A DNA stretch of 63,719 nt, filler included, from Octopus bimaculoides (GCF_001194135.2; 6 parts of 6 records of this genome joined end to end with filler, not necessarily neighbours in it), one strand, 5' to 3'; positions 721 to 61,415 are shown, counted from the whole stretch's first letter. Notes: generated from the sequence alone by a model not told the origin. A program made the numbers and translations.

Positions 721-1959
721 TTCTGTTTAAGGGTTAGGTTAAGGGTACACGTGGTTTGTGGAATGCTCACTCAACTACTTATGCGCTTGTTCAATCATTA
801 ATCTTTTTTGTCTTTTATCTTTAATTTGTGTCACTCATTAAATTAACTCTTCAAAGGTATTAGACGGGGAGATAATCAAAGCAACACGGCTTGTGTGGTT
901 GTCAAGCGATGGAAAGGACAAACACACATAACATACATACTGTATATATATATATATATATATATATATATCAGTTGAAGAGCGTAGGCTCGAAACGTCA
1001 AAGACTTTCTCTATTCCCGAGCGTTAAACTAATACATCCATTTGATGTTTACACCACCTGTCTTCGTNNNNNNNNNNNNNNNNNNNNNNNNNNNNNNNNN
1101 NNNNNNNNNNNNNNNNNNNNNNNNNNNNNNNNNNNNNNNNNNNNNNNNNNNNNNNNNNNNNNNNNNNNNNNNNNNNNNNNNNNNNNNNNNNNNNNNNNNN
1201 NNNNNNNNNNNNNNNNNNNNNNNNNNNNNNNNNNNNNNNNNNNNNNNNNNNNNNNNNNNNNNNNNNNNNNNNNNNNNNNNNNNNNNNNNNNNNNNNNNNN
1301 NNNNNNNNNNNNNNNNNNNNNNNNNNNNNNNNNNNNNATATATATATATATATATATACATGCATATATACACATATATATGTACACACACACACACACA
1401 CACACATACATATATATATACATGCATACATATATATATATAAATATAAAGCAAATAAGTAACAAGGGTGTCCAGGTATGAGTGGATTACGGCTGTTTTA
1501 GGCGGCTCCATTTAATCTAACAATGATTGAAACGGCCGTAAGGCACTAATACCTTGACATCCTTGTACTTATTAGCTTCTTATTCACCTTACTTCAAGCT
1601 GTGCGGATAATACCGGACTGGCTTGGTGCTTCAACTTAAGTACCTAATTCAACCGAATCTCTCTCTCTCTCTCTCTGAACTGGAACCCAAGTGATTACAA
1701 AACGAGCTTTTAACCACTAAGTCACACAATCTTCATTAAAGAGTTCACTATTGAATAAATGGACTTGGAATACTCGACATCGAAAGATGGTAGATACATG
1801 TATATGTTATACTTTAATAATTTTAATTTCTTATATAATTGTGGGATTACTTGGAGCTCTATATAAATTCTTTCCTATCACACTTCATCTACATCACCTC
1901 GACCTCACAATTAAATTGTATTGCGTATGCTGATATGTCCATGAGTATGTGTATGTTCA

Positions 1960-2645
1960 TGATACATACATACATACATACATACATACATACATATATA
2001 CATATATACAAACATGTTATTTCCCCGCCTAAAACGTTTGTATAAATACATACAAGAGTTTTAGACGTGAAAATAAAGCAACACTGCTTGTATGTGTATA
2101 TATGTATATACACATACATACATACATACATACATACATACATACATGCATACATACATGCATACATACATGCATACATACGTACGTACGTACATGTATA
2201 CATACATATCCAAAATTATATACAACCTCCCCCATATATATATATATTCATGCGTATGTGTATGCATACGACAATGATAATAATAATAATAATAATAATA
2301 ATAATAATAATAATAATAATAATAATAATAATAATGATGATGATGATGTGGTAGTGAAAATGATGATAACAACAATAACAATAATTATAATTATGTATAA
2401 GCACACTTACATACATCCATACGTATATATATTTACATTAACACACAGTCTCTCTCTCACACACACACACAAACAAATACACATATTCACATACATATAC
2501 ACATACATACATGCGTACATGCATACATACATACATGCAAAACATACATACATGTAAAACACACAAATACATACATACATACATACATACATTCATACAT
2601 ACATACGTACATACATATATACATACATACATACATATATATGTA
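1960..2645. repeat. Compound (TACA)n / (TAA)n / (CA)n microsatellite field
   Basis: Directly visible; it generates the HTYI and poly-I/N ORFs. Confidence 0.95.
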
Positions 2646-3859
2646 ATTGATTGCTTTTGCAGTCGTGCACTAAAATAACCTTGGAGTTACCATTAGCAAA
2701 AAAAATGGTAAATTCTGATAAACTGACACTTGAGATATATGTTCCGAAAACTGATACCCGAAAATACCCCTTAAATACACACTAATTTTTACTTCATTTG
2801 AAAACATTCCTTTCTCCTCTCACGGTTTTTGTTTTTCTTGTCATTTTGAAATGACTTTCTCCGGTTTTTGATTAAAATTGAAACGATTTATTTCGTAAAA
2901 AAATCTGTTAAAAGAGATAGCAGAATGCAGCAAGTTCCACTTCGTTCAAATTTCTTTAATGATTAATTAAAGATAGTGAAAACGTGGTAGAAAATGGAAC
3001 CGTAGTTAAGAATTTAAAATTAGCAGACATGTACTAAAGAACGTGGTGAAAGTTAGACTAAAATTTAAAAGAGATATCCCTGGGACAATTTCTAGATTTG
3101 ATGTGTCTTTTAGGTTATCAACTATTCTGTTAACATAAGAACTGAAATGCCGAAATATAGACATCCCTTTACTTCGACTGCTTTACGAAAACTTTGCGTT
3201 CCTAAGAATTATGTTGCCCAGTCGAATTCCGTAACGCGGAAAGTACATTGACTTTTATGTAAAGTGAAATCAATGGAAAAACAGTTTTCACGTTACAGAA
3301 TACCACGTTAAAATAAGCTTTTCAGAATTGCAGAGTTTTCGTAATGCAGAGGATACAGCTACTTACCAAAAAATCAAGAGAGAAACAATCAGAAATTTGG
3401 GGACATGTGCTAATCGATATCACCGATTTCATCAATTGATTGGGGGATGTTTTCTGTTTTGCTGGCCACGAAATGATGAAATGCATAATTGACTTTAAGA
3501 GGCTGAGAAAACCCTGGGATAATTTTTGGAACTGATGTGTTTTCTACAAAAACAAAGTTGATCGTGGGACAGTTATTCCAATAAGCAATTTGAAGACAGG
3601 ACGCAGAGCAGGAATGAGATTGCTGGATATTCATGCCTTTCTTAAAGAAGGATTATAAGAATAAGGGAAGTTAATCGTCATTAAGTGGATATAGAATTCG
3701 GGATGCGCATTTGATGTATCGTGAGGCTTGTTGGCCACCATTCCTCGGCAAAGGTCAGTTATGGTGGTAGCATATTTAAAAGTTAGAAATTTTCTTTCAT
3801 GAAATTCTGGGAACATTGTTCTGTCAACTTGGGTAGAAAACCCCAATGTCTACAGATGA

Positions 3860-4705
3860 TAAAAACACGACGACGACGATGATGACGATGACGATGACAA
3901 TGATGCTGCTGCTGCTACTGCTGCTGCTACTGCTGATGGTGATGATGATGATGATAGTGATGATGGAGTTGGTGGTGCTGGTCTTAATGTTGATGATGAT
4001 AATGAGGATGATAATTTGGATGATAATGAGGATAACGAAATTGTTTATGACGATGGTGTTGGTTATGTCGACAATGATGGCGGTGGTAACGGTGATAACT
4101 ATAACGAGGCTCTGGAAATATTAAGGGTCATGAACGCTGTCTTTTCCTGTTTGGTTAAACGGTAACACCCCCACCCCCGCATATTTTATGTTCCCTACTT
4201 AACACATTTAATATAATCATCGACATAACCATCATCATCATCATCATCATCATCATCAACATCAACATCGTCATCATCATATTGATTGTCATCGCTCGTA
4301 TCATCCTCCTCCTCCTCCTCCTCCTCATCATCATCATCATATTGATCATCATCGTGTCCGTATCGTCGTCATCATCATCATCTTCATCATGATCGTCATC
4401 ATCATCATCATCATCATCATCATCATCATCATCATCATCATCATCATCTTCATCACGATCGTCATCATCATCATCATCATTATCATCAACACCATCATCA
4501 CGAACGTCAACAACAGTATCGCTATCACCATCAACACCATCATCAACTCCGTCATCACCGTCATCACTATAACCGCTACTCTCAACATTACTAAATCCAC
4601 CACCACCACCACCATCAGCACCACCACCACCACCAGCACGATCGACACCCTCACTCACATTGCTGGCACCATCACCATCAGCACCATCATCATAATCATT
4701 AATAT
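3860..4705. repeat. Low-complexity trinucleotide field (GAT-rich, then CAT/CAC-rich)
   Basis: Directly visible; it is the source of the poly-M, poly-D and poly-I ORFs. Confidence 0.9.
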
Positions 4706-59523: not shown

Positions 59524-60257
59524 AGTTTTGGAACGATGATGCCTCTCCCTCAGACAACCTCTCTTGCCAACCTCCGACAACCTCTCACCCCAACCCCTGA
59601 AAACCTCTCTCGAGAACCTCTCTAGACAACTTCCGATGACCTCTCTTGCCAGCCTCCAACAATCTCTCCCTCCTCTAGCTGACAGTTTTTGTATCTTTCT
59701 GAGACGGAAAATACACCTTTTGTNNNNNNNNNNNNNNNNNNNNNNNNNNNNNNNNNNNNNNNNNNNNTTAATTAATTAANNNNNNNNNNNNNNNNNNNNN
59801 NNNNNNNNNNNNNNNNNNNNNNNAGGGGGTGGGGGAGAACAATTTTCGGAAATTCCACTTAAATTCCTCTTAACTTCCAGGAAAATGAATATTTTTTCCT
59901 GAAATTTTCTACAAATATACCTTGATGTATGTACATTTCGAGCATGTAGGAATTTTGAAGGAAATAACTGCAGGTTATTTTTGAGAAGTGTTTCCCACTC
60001 GGTGTTATTTCGGAGCAAGTCATCCATATTTGTTTCATTTTTCTCTATTATGTGCATATGTGCATCCATATATTTCTAATGAAGTAATAGGCAGTGAAGA
60101 GAAGCCGTCATAAGAAAACTTTTAACTACCTCTATTCCTTTCTCCCCCTCTCTCTACCTCTTCCTCTCTCGCTCTCTGAAACACATACACGTGCAAGTAT
60201 ACAATCATTCAGTAAAATATGACTCGTCAATGTTTTGTAAATATACCACGATTTTCA

Positions 60258-60415
60258 CTAGGGTGTTAGGGTTAGGGTTTTAGAGTTTAGGGTTATGGTT
60301 TAGGGTTACGGTTACGGTTAGTGTCAGGATTAGTGTTACGGTTACGGTTTTAGGGTCAGGGTTAGGGTTTAGGGTTAGTGTTAGGATTAGGTTTAGGATT
60401 AGGATTAGGGTTGGG
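60258..60415 (+). repeat. Degenerate interstitial telomere-like (TTAGGG)n tract
   Basis: ttagggttaggg units are interspersed with ttacgg, ttagga, ttagtg and tcaggg variants. Confidence 0.85.
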
Positions 60416-61355
60416 TAATCGTGCAGGTGTTAATCTGAAAAATTACAGATATCTGAAAAGTACCGACCCTGCCATCTATTATAAATTTTGTTGTTCTGTT
60501 TAATATATACATAGATTANNNNNNNNNNNNNNNNNNNNNNNNNNNNNNNNNNNNNNNNNNNNNNNNNNNNNNNNNNNNNNNNNNNNNNNNNNNNNNNNNN
60601 NNNNNNNNNNNNNNNNNNNNNNNNNNNNNNNNNNNNNNNNNNNNNNNNNNNNNNNNNNNNNNNNNNNNNNNNNNNNNNNNNNNNNNNNNNNNNNNNNNNN
60701 NNNNNNNNNNNNNNNNNNNNNNNNNNNNNNNNNNNNNNNNNNNNNNNNNNNNNNNNNNNNNNNNNNNNNNNNNNNNNNNNNNNNNNNNNNNNNNNNNNNN
60801 NNNNNNNNNNNNNNNNNNNNNNNNNNNNNNNNNNNNNNNNNNNNNNNNNNNNNNNNNNNNNNNNNNNNNNNNNNNNNNNNNNNNNNNNNNNNNNNNNNNN
60901 NNNNNNNNNNNNNNNNNNNNNNNNNNNNNNNNNNNNNNNNNNNNNNNNNNNNNNNNNNNNNNNNNNNNNNNNNNNNNNNNNNNNNNNNNNNNNNNNNNNN
61001 NNNNNNNNNNNNNNNNNNNNNNNNNNNNNNNNNNNNNNNNNNNNNNNNNNNNNNNNNNNNNNNNNNNNNNNNNNNNNNNNNNNNNNNNNNNNNNNNNNNN
61101 NNNNNNNNNNNNNNNNNNNNNNNNNNNNNNNNNNNNNNNNNNNNNNNNNNNNNNNNNNNNNNNNNNNNNNNNNNNNNNNNNNNNNNNNNNNNNNNNNNNN
61201 NNNNNNNATATATATATATATATATATATATATATATACATATATATATATATATATGTATATATATATATATATATATGTGTGTGTGTGACCTGGATAT
61301 TATGTAAATAGAGGAATTTATCTGTAAAAATATGTGACACTTATTCGGTAGCTAT

Positions 61356-61415
61356 GATAAAACTCCGAGTTTCAGATGCCGGGGTGGGAACCCACGACGC
61401 CATCTCTTCAGTTAA
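61356..61415 (-). ncRNA. Type-I hammerhead ribozyme-like motif
   Basis: Minus strand GTTAA-CTGAAGA-GATG gc gtc GTGGG tt CCCAC ccc gg CATC-T-GAAA-CTC g GAG-TT-TTATC. Helix II is GATG/CATC with an inner hairpin, helix III is the near-palindrome ACTC-G-GAGT, and helix I pairs 4 of 5. Confidence 0.6.

Follow-up and report, generated by a model that had tools for sequence, protein, structure and literature searches.

Decayed minimal hammerhead motifs of several unrelated families probably mark truncated Penelope-like elements

What kind of element leaves solitary, hammerhead-shaped motifs of unrelated sequence along a single stretch of DNA? The window, which is the whole stretch of 63,719 nucleotides of Octopus bimaculoides DNA analyzed here (filler included), had been described in an earlier note as carrying a dispersed set of such motifs from about five unrelated families, each belonging to an independent and probably non-autonomous retroelement. 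All eight motifs are present in the sequence at 972, 14571, 30191, 51472, 53346, 53492, 56479, and 61356 and, apart from damage particular to each locus, have the order that had been described for them, namely helix I, CTGANGA, helix II, GAAA, short helix III, cleavage site, and helix I. The palindromic helix III was likewise found as described, in the motifs at 972, 14571, 30191, 53346, and 61356 and in the majority sequence of family C; helix III is damaged in those at 51472, 53492, and 56479. No motif in the window is intact. The motif at 30191 has a G at position 17, that at 56479 has GAAG instead of GAAA, that at 53492 has lost G12, and that at 972 has a T for C3 and is missing the 5′ strand of helix I. 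None of the eight passes a strict descriptor with an NUH cleavage site, and one (30195) passes only if G17 is allowed. The strict descriptor also gives one unrelated, chance-like match at 6847.

The eight motifs correspond to seven insertions in six unrelated families, A to F. When all 28 pairs of loci were aligned, each against 200 shuffles, only the three pairs among 53346, 53492, and 56479 (family C) beat every shuffle; the pairs 14571–51472 (3 of 200 shuffles) and 30191–51472 (4 of 200) are borderline. The count of about five families is correct without the partial motif at 972 and rises to six if it is included.

Density of the motifs was assessed with a scored descriptor in the window and in 1,405 block-wise dinucleotide shuffles. 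With at most one deviation there are two matches, relative to a shuffle mean of 0.065 (reached in 6 of the 1,405 shuffles), and with at most three there are 13, relative to 6.6 expected (41 shuffles). At two deviations or fewer, five matches (30195, 53387, 14575, 51477, and 61411, all of them loci of the earlier note) compare with 0.94 ± 0.97 expected (4 shuffles), so motif density exceeds that of shuffled controls, with an enrichment that is somewhat inflated because the descriptor was devised once the loci were known. The descriptor places 56520 at three deviations and misses 972 and 53497 even at that threshold. Rfam models gave a mixed result. Hammerheads are absent among the 150 of 189 matches listed for the whole window, a scan dominated by microsatellite matches to miRNA models. 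Of the three loci that were scanned locally, 53280–53410 and 61310–61460 have no hammerhead match, and a chosen 142-nt stretch has a weak match to RF00163 (Hammerhead_1) at 30189–30281 (E = 0.0043; its 21.2 bits fall short of the gathering score of 34). Fold z-scores of seven of the eight window copies range from −1.79 to +0.54, and single-strand folding is uninformative.

Could the less perfect motifs be chance resemblances in AT-rich, low-complexity DNA? The concern applies to those at 51472, 14571, and 972, whose fold z-scores are −0.79, +0.54, and −1.79, and about one match at two deviations is expected by chance per window. Family B is a minimal hammerhead with two deviations (14571–14618, plus strand) that has a 4-bp helix I, a bulged A, an imperfect helix II, an extra base before GAAA, an 8-nt near-palindrome, and A17, an unusual layout that is nevertheless that of a Drosophila willistoni Penelope-like element (PLE) motif in a published alignment. 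Family D (51392–51609, plus strand), also with two deviations, has a decayed minimal hammerhead at 51472–51512 with a perfect 5-bp helix II, a bulge, and damaged helices III and I, and it is flanked by inverted arms of 59 nt (51392–51450 and 51551–51609) that are 85% complementary. Family A is a partial hammerhead (972–1005, plus strand) located directly 3′ of a (TA)n tract, with a T for C3, hairpin II, GAAA, the palindrome ACGT, and C17; U3 together with G8 occurs in a PLE motif of Saccoglossus in the published alignment. The motif at 61356 is as imperfect as these, yet it belongs to a high-copy family with a restored consensus. We therefore regard chance as a very unlikely source of the three motifs. 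Two matches of the exact family A pattern in prokaryote genomes have flanks without similarity and were rejected as chance; the same pattern has no match in viral contigs.

Family C provides the most detailed view of how the motifs were inserted. A compound insertion at 53268–53593 spans both strands and consists of two copies in inverted orientation. The copy on the minus strand has a 3′ tail and a hammerhead at 53346–53393 and is followed by a short (AAT)n tract, and the inverted copy on the plus strand is tail-less with a decayed hammerhead at 53492–53537. Judging from their arrangement, the motifs at 53346 and 53492 are the halves of one inverted insertion. The insertion is bordered by 12-nt direct repeats (53256–53267 and 53594–53605, plus strand; 11 of 12 positions identical), which are likely its target-site duplication, a reading weakened by the fact that the right repeat continues into a (TAG)n tract. 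The loci at 14571, 30191, 51472, and 56479 yielded no convincing target-site duplication. The third copy (56424–56581, minus strand) is tail-less, begins after an (AAT)n tract, and has a hammerhead at 56479–56525 with copy-specific damage in helix II and GAAA.

Sequencing reads and contigs show that family C extends far beyond the window. Read evidence covers family C (via 56479) and family F (via 61356). Alignment to reference 56400–56590 recovered 7,782 contigs in DNA run X1 and 4,968 in X14 as well as 5,562 and 4,253 reads in two RNA runs; because run X14 carries a different organism label, family C is common to another species. The exact family C pattern has no match in metagenome contigs. 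For 51357–56970 a run search listed no RNA run on record, an outcome without bearing on expression. In the majority sequence GAAA is intact again (56489; 96% in X1), as is helix II (56511, 95%; 56512, 93%), resulting in a core with a bulged A, G10.1–C11.1, ACGT, U17, helix I, and a helix II of 5–6 bp, the layout of the published min-HHR consensus. Core CpG sites decay freely; RNA reads carry an altered G12 at rates of 23% and 20%, and 12–14% of X1 depth has a change in the CpG of ACGT. Loose ends of family C at 56423–56432 are of two kinds. Some are heterogeneous flanks (agreement of 0.41–0.48 in X1) and others share an extension that is the 3′ end of the 53346 copy, such that copies end with or without a tail of 30–40 nt. 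The optional tail and the inverted, tail-less partner of family C are hallmarks of PLEs.

Family F is likewise abundant in the DNA runs. Its window copy (61292–61610, minus strand; ends approximate) lies between two (TA)n tracts, and its hammerhead (61356–61416) has a long, G+C-rich helix II and a 9-nt helix III. Contigs aligned to reference 61300–61560 number 3,005 in X1, 1,301 in X14, and 316 in X15, so that this family too occurs in another species, and the sequence is also present in RNA reads. Majority letters restore C11.1 (61374; 92%), and with it the G10.1–C11.1 pair, and a 5-bp helix I; there is no base after A9, yet there is one bulge within helix II. Some copies end near 61319–61329 within (TA)n, and two 3′ end regions are suggested for this family. 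On the other side, family F extends past 61530 while summed depth, ∼1.4 million on the 3′ side of the cut site, drops to 0.13–0.25 million at 61444–61488 and 0.03 million at 61516–61524, thinning toward the 5′ side; summed contig depth does not equal copy number, and indels of the window copy also lower depth at 61415–61442.

Families C and F are thus high-copy, genome-wide repeats in which the window copies bear private damage. In both, the majority sequence has the complete CUGANGA/GAAA core with an NUH site, and the hammerhead helices are more stable than in the window copies (−13.6 vs. −9.4 kcal/mol in family C and −27.6 vs. −23.5 kcal/mol in family F). The expectation that consensus sequences would preserve core and helices was borne out in both families examined.

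The occurrence of families C and F in RNA reads, together with an exon of a DNase I-like gene in the window, raises the question of whether any copy is a domesticated, active ribozyme that processes host transcripts. This is extremely improbable, given that every copy in the window departs from its family or the consensus through damage of its own, first mates are nearly equal on both strands, about a fifth of family C reads have an altered G12, and read ends in neither family pile up at the cleavage site. For comparison, the ribozyme of an anole PLE cleaves in vitro, yet its reads likewise have no pile-up of ends (PMC11167929).

A different possibility is that some families, most plausibly C or E, are discrete non-autonomous derivatives of PLEs or solo offspring of retrozymes, copied in trans by proteins of the Hydra or Neptune type. 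The very abundant family C has three copies in two insertions that start at the same point after AAT and span ∼170–210 nt, a shared start that is as compatible with a discrete short element as with truncation; a 5′ boundary is not visible among the loose ends listed (515 further rows). Family E (30189–30281, plus strand; one deviation) is the most canonical-looking type-I hammerhead of the set and the one with the weak resemblance to RF00163. It has a 6-bp helix I with a bulge, a helix II of 4–5 bp with a 53-nt structured insertion, an 8-nt palindrome, and G17, and lacks the bulged base typical of minimal PLE motifs; its fold z-score is −3.66, but the minimum-energy fold differs from a hammerhead. 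An N gap begins 10 nt beyond the copy, and further units could lie within it or within the N gaps adjoining several other loci. A preprint from 2026 moreover argues that animal retrozymes derive from PLE terminal repeats (pLTRs) and leave many monomers (bioRxiv 10.64898/2026.07.22.740005). The units and circles that had been proposed as signs of such elements did not appear, however. There is no tandem unit of 150–400 nt in the window, where none of 52 tandem-repeat rows has a period above 76 nt, and no motif locus has a second copy nearby on the same strand. No circle-type junction occurs among the 15 of 26 joints listed for family C or the two for family F (∼6% of each RNA run; library selection not stated), and family F, without an end pile-up, runs on past 61530 and thins. 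We therefore consider discrete elements of this kind rather unlikely. Also unlikely is a specific form for family C, a discrete, ∼210-nt, non-coding mini-PLE that, like a SINE with a hammerhead, relies on PLE proteins and multiplied to very high numbers of dispersed monomers and inverted pairs instead of tandem arrays; the pairs would form dsRNA, and A-to-I editing by the host would recode the ribozyme core.

The motifs are probably decayed minimal type-I hammerheads at the pLTR ends of 5′-truncated copies from several PLE families. Of the original interpretation, minimal type-I hammerheads of the PLE kind in several unrelated families are retained, and non-autonomous elements or retrozymes become an unlikely alternative. 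An optional tail, an inverted partner, and a fall in depth toward the 5′ side, as in family F, are what 5′-truncated copies of ordinary PLEs leave. Based on published PLE biology, the PLE protein would nick AT-rich or microsatellite DNA, and reverse transcription would begin immediately 3′ of the hammerhead at either of two internal sites, which would yield two 3′ ends. Synthesis that mostly stops early would insert only the last 100–300 nt with the hammerhead. In an active parent, the ribozyme may cut as a tandem-pLTR dimer via the palindromic helix III (dimer cleavage by Lunse et al., as cited in PMC6765202) or with the protein of the element, and the solitary, damaged copies of the window are predicted to be inactive and decaying neutrally.

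Endonucleases of two PLE lineages occur in the window alongside the motifs, as had been noted. A GIY-YIG remnant of the Hydra-clade type (57071–57478, minus strand; Pfam GIY-YIG E = 7.6e-5) has a CxCX5C linker and CxxC and lacks CCHH. It follows a (TA)n tract, is interrupted by an N gap, and shares 42% identity over 125 aa with P0030 (722 aa), in which RWK and YRDD motifs are present; this and a second full-length relative, P0037, have RWK or DKT plus YRDD by eye, and Pfam finds no domain in either. A search of viral contigs with this single endonuclease gave one weak match of 27 residues. A remnant of the Neptune/Nematis type (21838–22035, plus strand; Pfam GIY-YIG E = 1.8e-4) also follows a (TA)n tract and is interrupted by an N gap, has no motif attached, and shares 49% identity over 59 aa with the C-terminal end of P0009, a protein with an RT domain. 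Among 17 metagenome loci related to it, four have a motif 250–330 nt 3′ of the ORF in sense (L008 and L010 have an identical motif sequence) and 13 do not, and on the antisense strand a motif occurs in one of 17. Nowhere in the window does a motif connect to a PLE ORF, and both remnants end in N gaps. A link between the Hydra-type endonuclease and the motif at 56479 was rejected since a gap, a LINE-like 3′ end, and (AAT)n intervene. The Pfam scan took 148 of 285 candidate translated stretches (three from a shorter set), and short PLE remnants may therefore have been missed.

These findings add another animal lineage to a documented pattern, many families of minimal hammerheads (min-HHRs) in PLE ends, an arrangement already described in many animals. 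The motifs offer markers for classing short, unlabeled repeats as PLE-derived. Should family C be a discrete non-autonomous element, it would offer a clean way of learning which pLTR features PLE trans-copying needs and if the hammerhead counts among them. Articles listed for hammerheads in combination with the presumed host group do not treat these families, a scope that stops short of file 1 of PMC4209133, file S2 of PMC8557442 (a list of Hydra-clade hammerheads), and Repbase/Dfam.

Relative to known systems, the motifs share with non-LTR retrozymes a type-I hammerhead, low G+C content, and copies that are non-coding where seen, and 30191 has a likeness to the canonical RF00163 form. Retrozymes consist of 150–450 bp repeated head to tail, carry canonical hammerheads, and give abundant circular RNA (PMC7229834; Cervera and de la Peña 2020); no head-to-tail units appear in the window, and no circle-type joints appear among those listed for families C and F. 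Among the PLE clades with C-terminal endonucleases described in PMC8557442 (Craig et al. 2021), the Hydra clade shares the CxCX5C linker with one remnant and the Neptune/Nematis type, with RT, CX2-5CxxC, and GIY-YIG, matches the other; the window has short, broken remnants only. The same paper also describes association with (TA)n, an optional tail of 30–40 bp, and an inverted truncated partner, the latter two of which are described in PMC11167929 as well. The closest likeness is to the min-HHRs in pLTRs of metazoan PLEs (PMC4209133; Cervera and de la Peña 2014), most of which are reported there as dispersed single copies that belong to many families in each animal genome and probably stem from truncated PLEs. 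As far as that paper was compared, the sequences of the window are new, and here no family is tied to an ORF. Helix II of 30191 (61 nt from core to GAAA) and of 61356 (31 nt) exceeds that in the alignment rows compared, which include an extra base before GAAA, palindromes of 6–8 nt, and U3 variants. Shared features are the type-I order, the CUGANGA core, a bulged base after A9, G10.1–C11.1, a short helix I, a palindromic or absent helix III, and some close pairs on opposite strands, and the rows of D. willistoni, Saccoglossus, Crassostrea, and Lottia are similar in layout to 14571, 30191, 51472, and family C.

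The eight hammerhead-like motifs lie where an earlier note had placed them, with the order of parts and the palindromes it described, and inspection of the sequence bears this out. None of the eight is intact, and a strict descriptor requiring an NUH site passes 0 of 8. A tolerant scored descriptor, written post hoc with the loci already seen, was run on the window, which is AT-rich (34% G+C counting N; 6,089 N) with microsatellites and dispersed repeats throughout, and on 1,405 shuffles of it as controls. At one deviation or fewer there are two matches (30195 and 53387, i.e., motifs 30191 and 53346) versus a shuffle mean of 0.065, a count reached by 6 of 1,405 shuffles. 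At two or fewer, matches at 14575, 51477, and 61411 (motifs 14571, 51472, and 61356) bring the count to five versus 0.94, which 4 of 1,405 shuffles reached. At three deviations, noise is mixed with signal (13 matches vs. 6.6 in shuffles), and the motifs at 972 and 53497 are missed. The only motif detected by Rfam is a Hammerhead_1 match below threshold at 30189–30281 (local scans: three of eight loci). By pairwise alignment the motifs form six unrelated families, with clear kinship only among 53346, 53492, and 56479 (family C). The window is animal DNA, and its SINEs and overall character suggest a cephalopod.

Family C was compared with public sequencing runs. Four of these (X1, a DNA run; X14, a run with another organism label; X21; and X22) were aligned to 56400–56590 at 80% likeness. 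Matching contigs number 7,782 in X1 and 4,968 in X14, and family C is therefore a very abundant repeat common to both species. The defects of the window copy at 56479 are private to it: in the family majority, GAAA (96% of X1 depth at 56489) and helix II (95% at 56511 and 93% at 56512) are both restored. The majority layout, consisting of core, bulged A, G10.1-C11.1, GAAA, ACGT palindrome, U17, and short helix I, is that of the published consensus (PMC4209133). CpG sites within the core decay, with G12 altered in 23% of reads in one RNA run and 20% in the other.

Family C copies also differ in whether they carry a tail, and two of them form an inverted pair between direct repeats. Many copies end on the 3′ side at 56423–56432, with unrelated flanks, and others run on into a common 3′ extension; of the window copies, 53346 has it, and 53492 and 56479 lack it. 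Published work on Penelope-like elements (PLEs) counts an optional tail of 30–40 bp, together with a truncated partner in inverted orientation, among their hallmarks (PMC8557442) and explains the tail by reverse transcription starting at two internal sites (PMC11167929). The 53346/53492 pair is an inverted structure of this kind, and it lies between direct repeats (12 nt, 11 of 12 identical), so it is one insertion. First mates of family C reads fall on both strands about equally, read ends do not pile up, and none of the joints listed (15 of 26) is a circle junction, all being strand switches or deletions. For an anole PLE, PMC11167929 describes a ribozyme that cleaves in vitro with protein help yet leaves no cut-site read ends, so the blank in family C is compatible with active parent elements.

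Changes of A>G and T>C occupy 20 and 19 of 45 places in the RNA runs across 56400–56590 versus 6 of 20 in DNA contigs, and core position U4 belongs to this set (about 12% in RNA vs. 0.4% in DNA contigs), in a comparison where RNA reads are also richer in CpG changes, contigs drop rare variants, and RNA and DNA are unmatched. The RNA-biased changes could reflect A-to-I editing of double-stranded RNA that inverted pairs would form.

We chose 61356 (family F) for a second read comparison because it is among the most doubtful motifs. It is a repeat, matched by 3,005 X1 contigs, 1,301 X14 contigs, 316 in run X15, and 469 RNA reads. In the family majority, C11.1 is restored (92%), helix II is lengthened, helix I is 5 bp, and the fold is more stable than that of the window copy. 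Depth, which as summed contig depth differs from copy number and is partly lowered by window-copy indels, peaks directly 3′ of the cut site and declines toward the 5′ side. Loose ends on the 5′ side indicate that the family goes on beyond 61530, and in some copies the end falls within (TA)n, about 30 nt short of where the window copy stops. The pattern fits 5′-truncated copies of a longer element favoring (TA)n. Families C and F are thus both high-copy, with majority hammerheads intact and individual copies decayed.

We suggest that the motifs are the pseudo-LTR (pLTR) ends of PLEs. For insertion, an endonuclease would nick the target and reverse transcription, primed internally, would halt early; the parent ribozymes would cleave either as dimers or assisted by a protein. 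The copies in the window have probably lost activity. The chief alternative, that some families are discrete nonautonomous elements, is less likely and draws its remaining weight from family C, because its copies share a single start following AAT and the read tables do not reveal the 5′ boundary. The interpretation in the earlier note is partly supported, in that several PLE-type hammerhead families stand. Tandem retrozyme units, searched for within the window, were not found.

Among 148 translated stretches, Pfam identifies two remnants of GIY-YIG endonucleases. The one at 57071–57478 carries a CxCX5C linker, a Hydra-clade feature, and aligns with the C-terminal end of 720-aa proteins bearing RWK or DKT and YRDD motifs; the one at 21838–22035, of Neptune/Nematis type, is similar to the C-terminus of proteins that have an RT and a CX2-5CxxC linker. 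Each begins after a (TA)n tract and is cut off by a gap, so that its own pLTR is out of view. As an indirect test we turn to 46 metagenome loci related to protein P0003 (kin of the Neptune-type remnant), of which 21 with a match to residue 402 or beyond were kept and four with <250 nt downstream were then removed. In the resulting 17 loci, a motif follows the ORF by 250–330 nt on the sense strand in four, two with identical motif sequence, and is absent from that strand in 13; the antisense strand has one in 1 of 17. In these four (L008, L010, L027, and L004) the ORFs are PLE ORFs with RT and GIY-YIG, and the motifs are minimal hammerheads with 0–2 deviations. None of the metagenome motifs is similar to those of the window at the DNA level, and the loci weakly support a general ORF-then-motif arrangement without linking window families to ORFs.

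Other features share the window. A stretch resembling an exon from a gene of the DNase I family is at 25250–25540 (minus strand; DNase gamma and DNase I structures, E 1e-13 to 1e-10), a Pif1-type helicase remnant, likely from a Helitron, at 58950–59520 (plus; Pfam Pif1_2B_dom E 1.5e-15), and a Mariner-type transposase remnant at 44165–44725 (plus; Pfam HTH_48 E 6.7e-4). LINE-like 3′ ends with a zinc-knuckle and endonuclease-like region are at 27269–28018 (plus), 38648–39394 (minus; zf-RVT at 38969–39394, E 0.0055), and 56650–56970 (minus), the last terminating in an (AAT)n tract that marks the start of the third copy of family C. A degenerate (TTAGGG)n-like array of about 24 copies (60265–60416) adjoins a large N gap. 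The near-perfect hairpin of ~165 nt at 48571–48736, which matches plant miRNA models far under gathering scores, is probably a MITE. Paired 44-N gaps 12 nt apart occur at 22036–22135, 42861–42960, 56971–57070, 59724–59823, and 62512–62611; the spacer is an identical AT-only 12-mer at 22080 and 57015–57026, probably a nongenomic assembly marker.

Assignment of 972, 14571, 30191, and 51472 rests on anatomy, by likeness to rows in the alignment of PMC4209133. Motif 14571 resembles that of a D. willistoni PLE (extra base before GAAA, 8-nt palindrome, and A17), 972 a Saccoglossus row with a U3 core, and 51472, which is enclosed by 59-nt inverted arms, a Crassostrea PLE row. Motif 30191 resembles a Saccoglossus row with a long palindrome; its helices are of canonical size, it lacks a bulge, and it contains a long insertion with structure but also G17, with an N gap 10 nt downstream; it is the best retrozyme candidate. 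Retrozymes are defined as tandem repeats yielding circular RNA (PMC7229834), and a preprint derives them from pLTRs (bioRxiv 10.64898/2026.07.22.740005). Our search of literature on hammerheads in cephalopods found nothing on the window families, and the accessible text on an octopus genome (PMC13282606) annotates PLEs and leaves ribozymes unmentioned. The motifs are nevertheless a known kind of sequence, correctly caught: animal genomes are reported to hold large motif sets in many consensus families each, mostly single and probably derived from truncated PLEs (PMC4209133), and Hydra and the rest of the canonical PLEs are stated to carry canonical hammerheads universally (PMC8557442).
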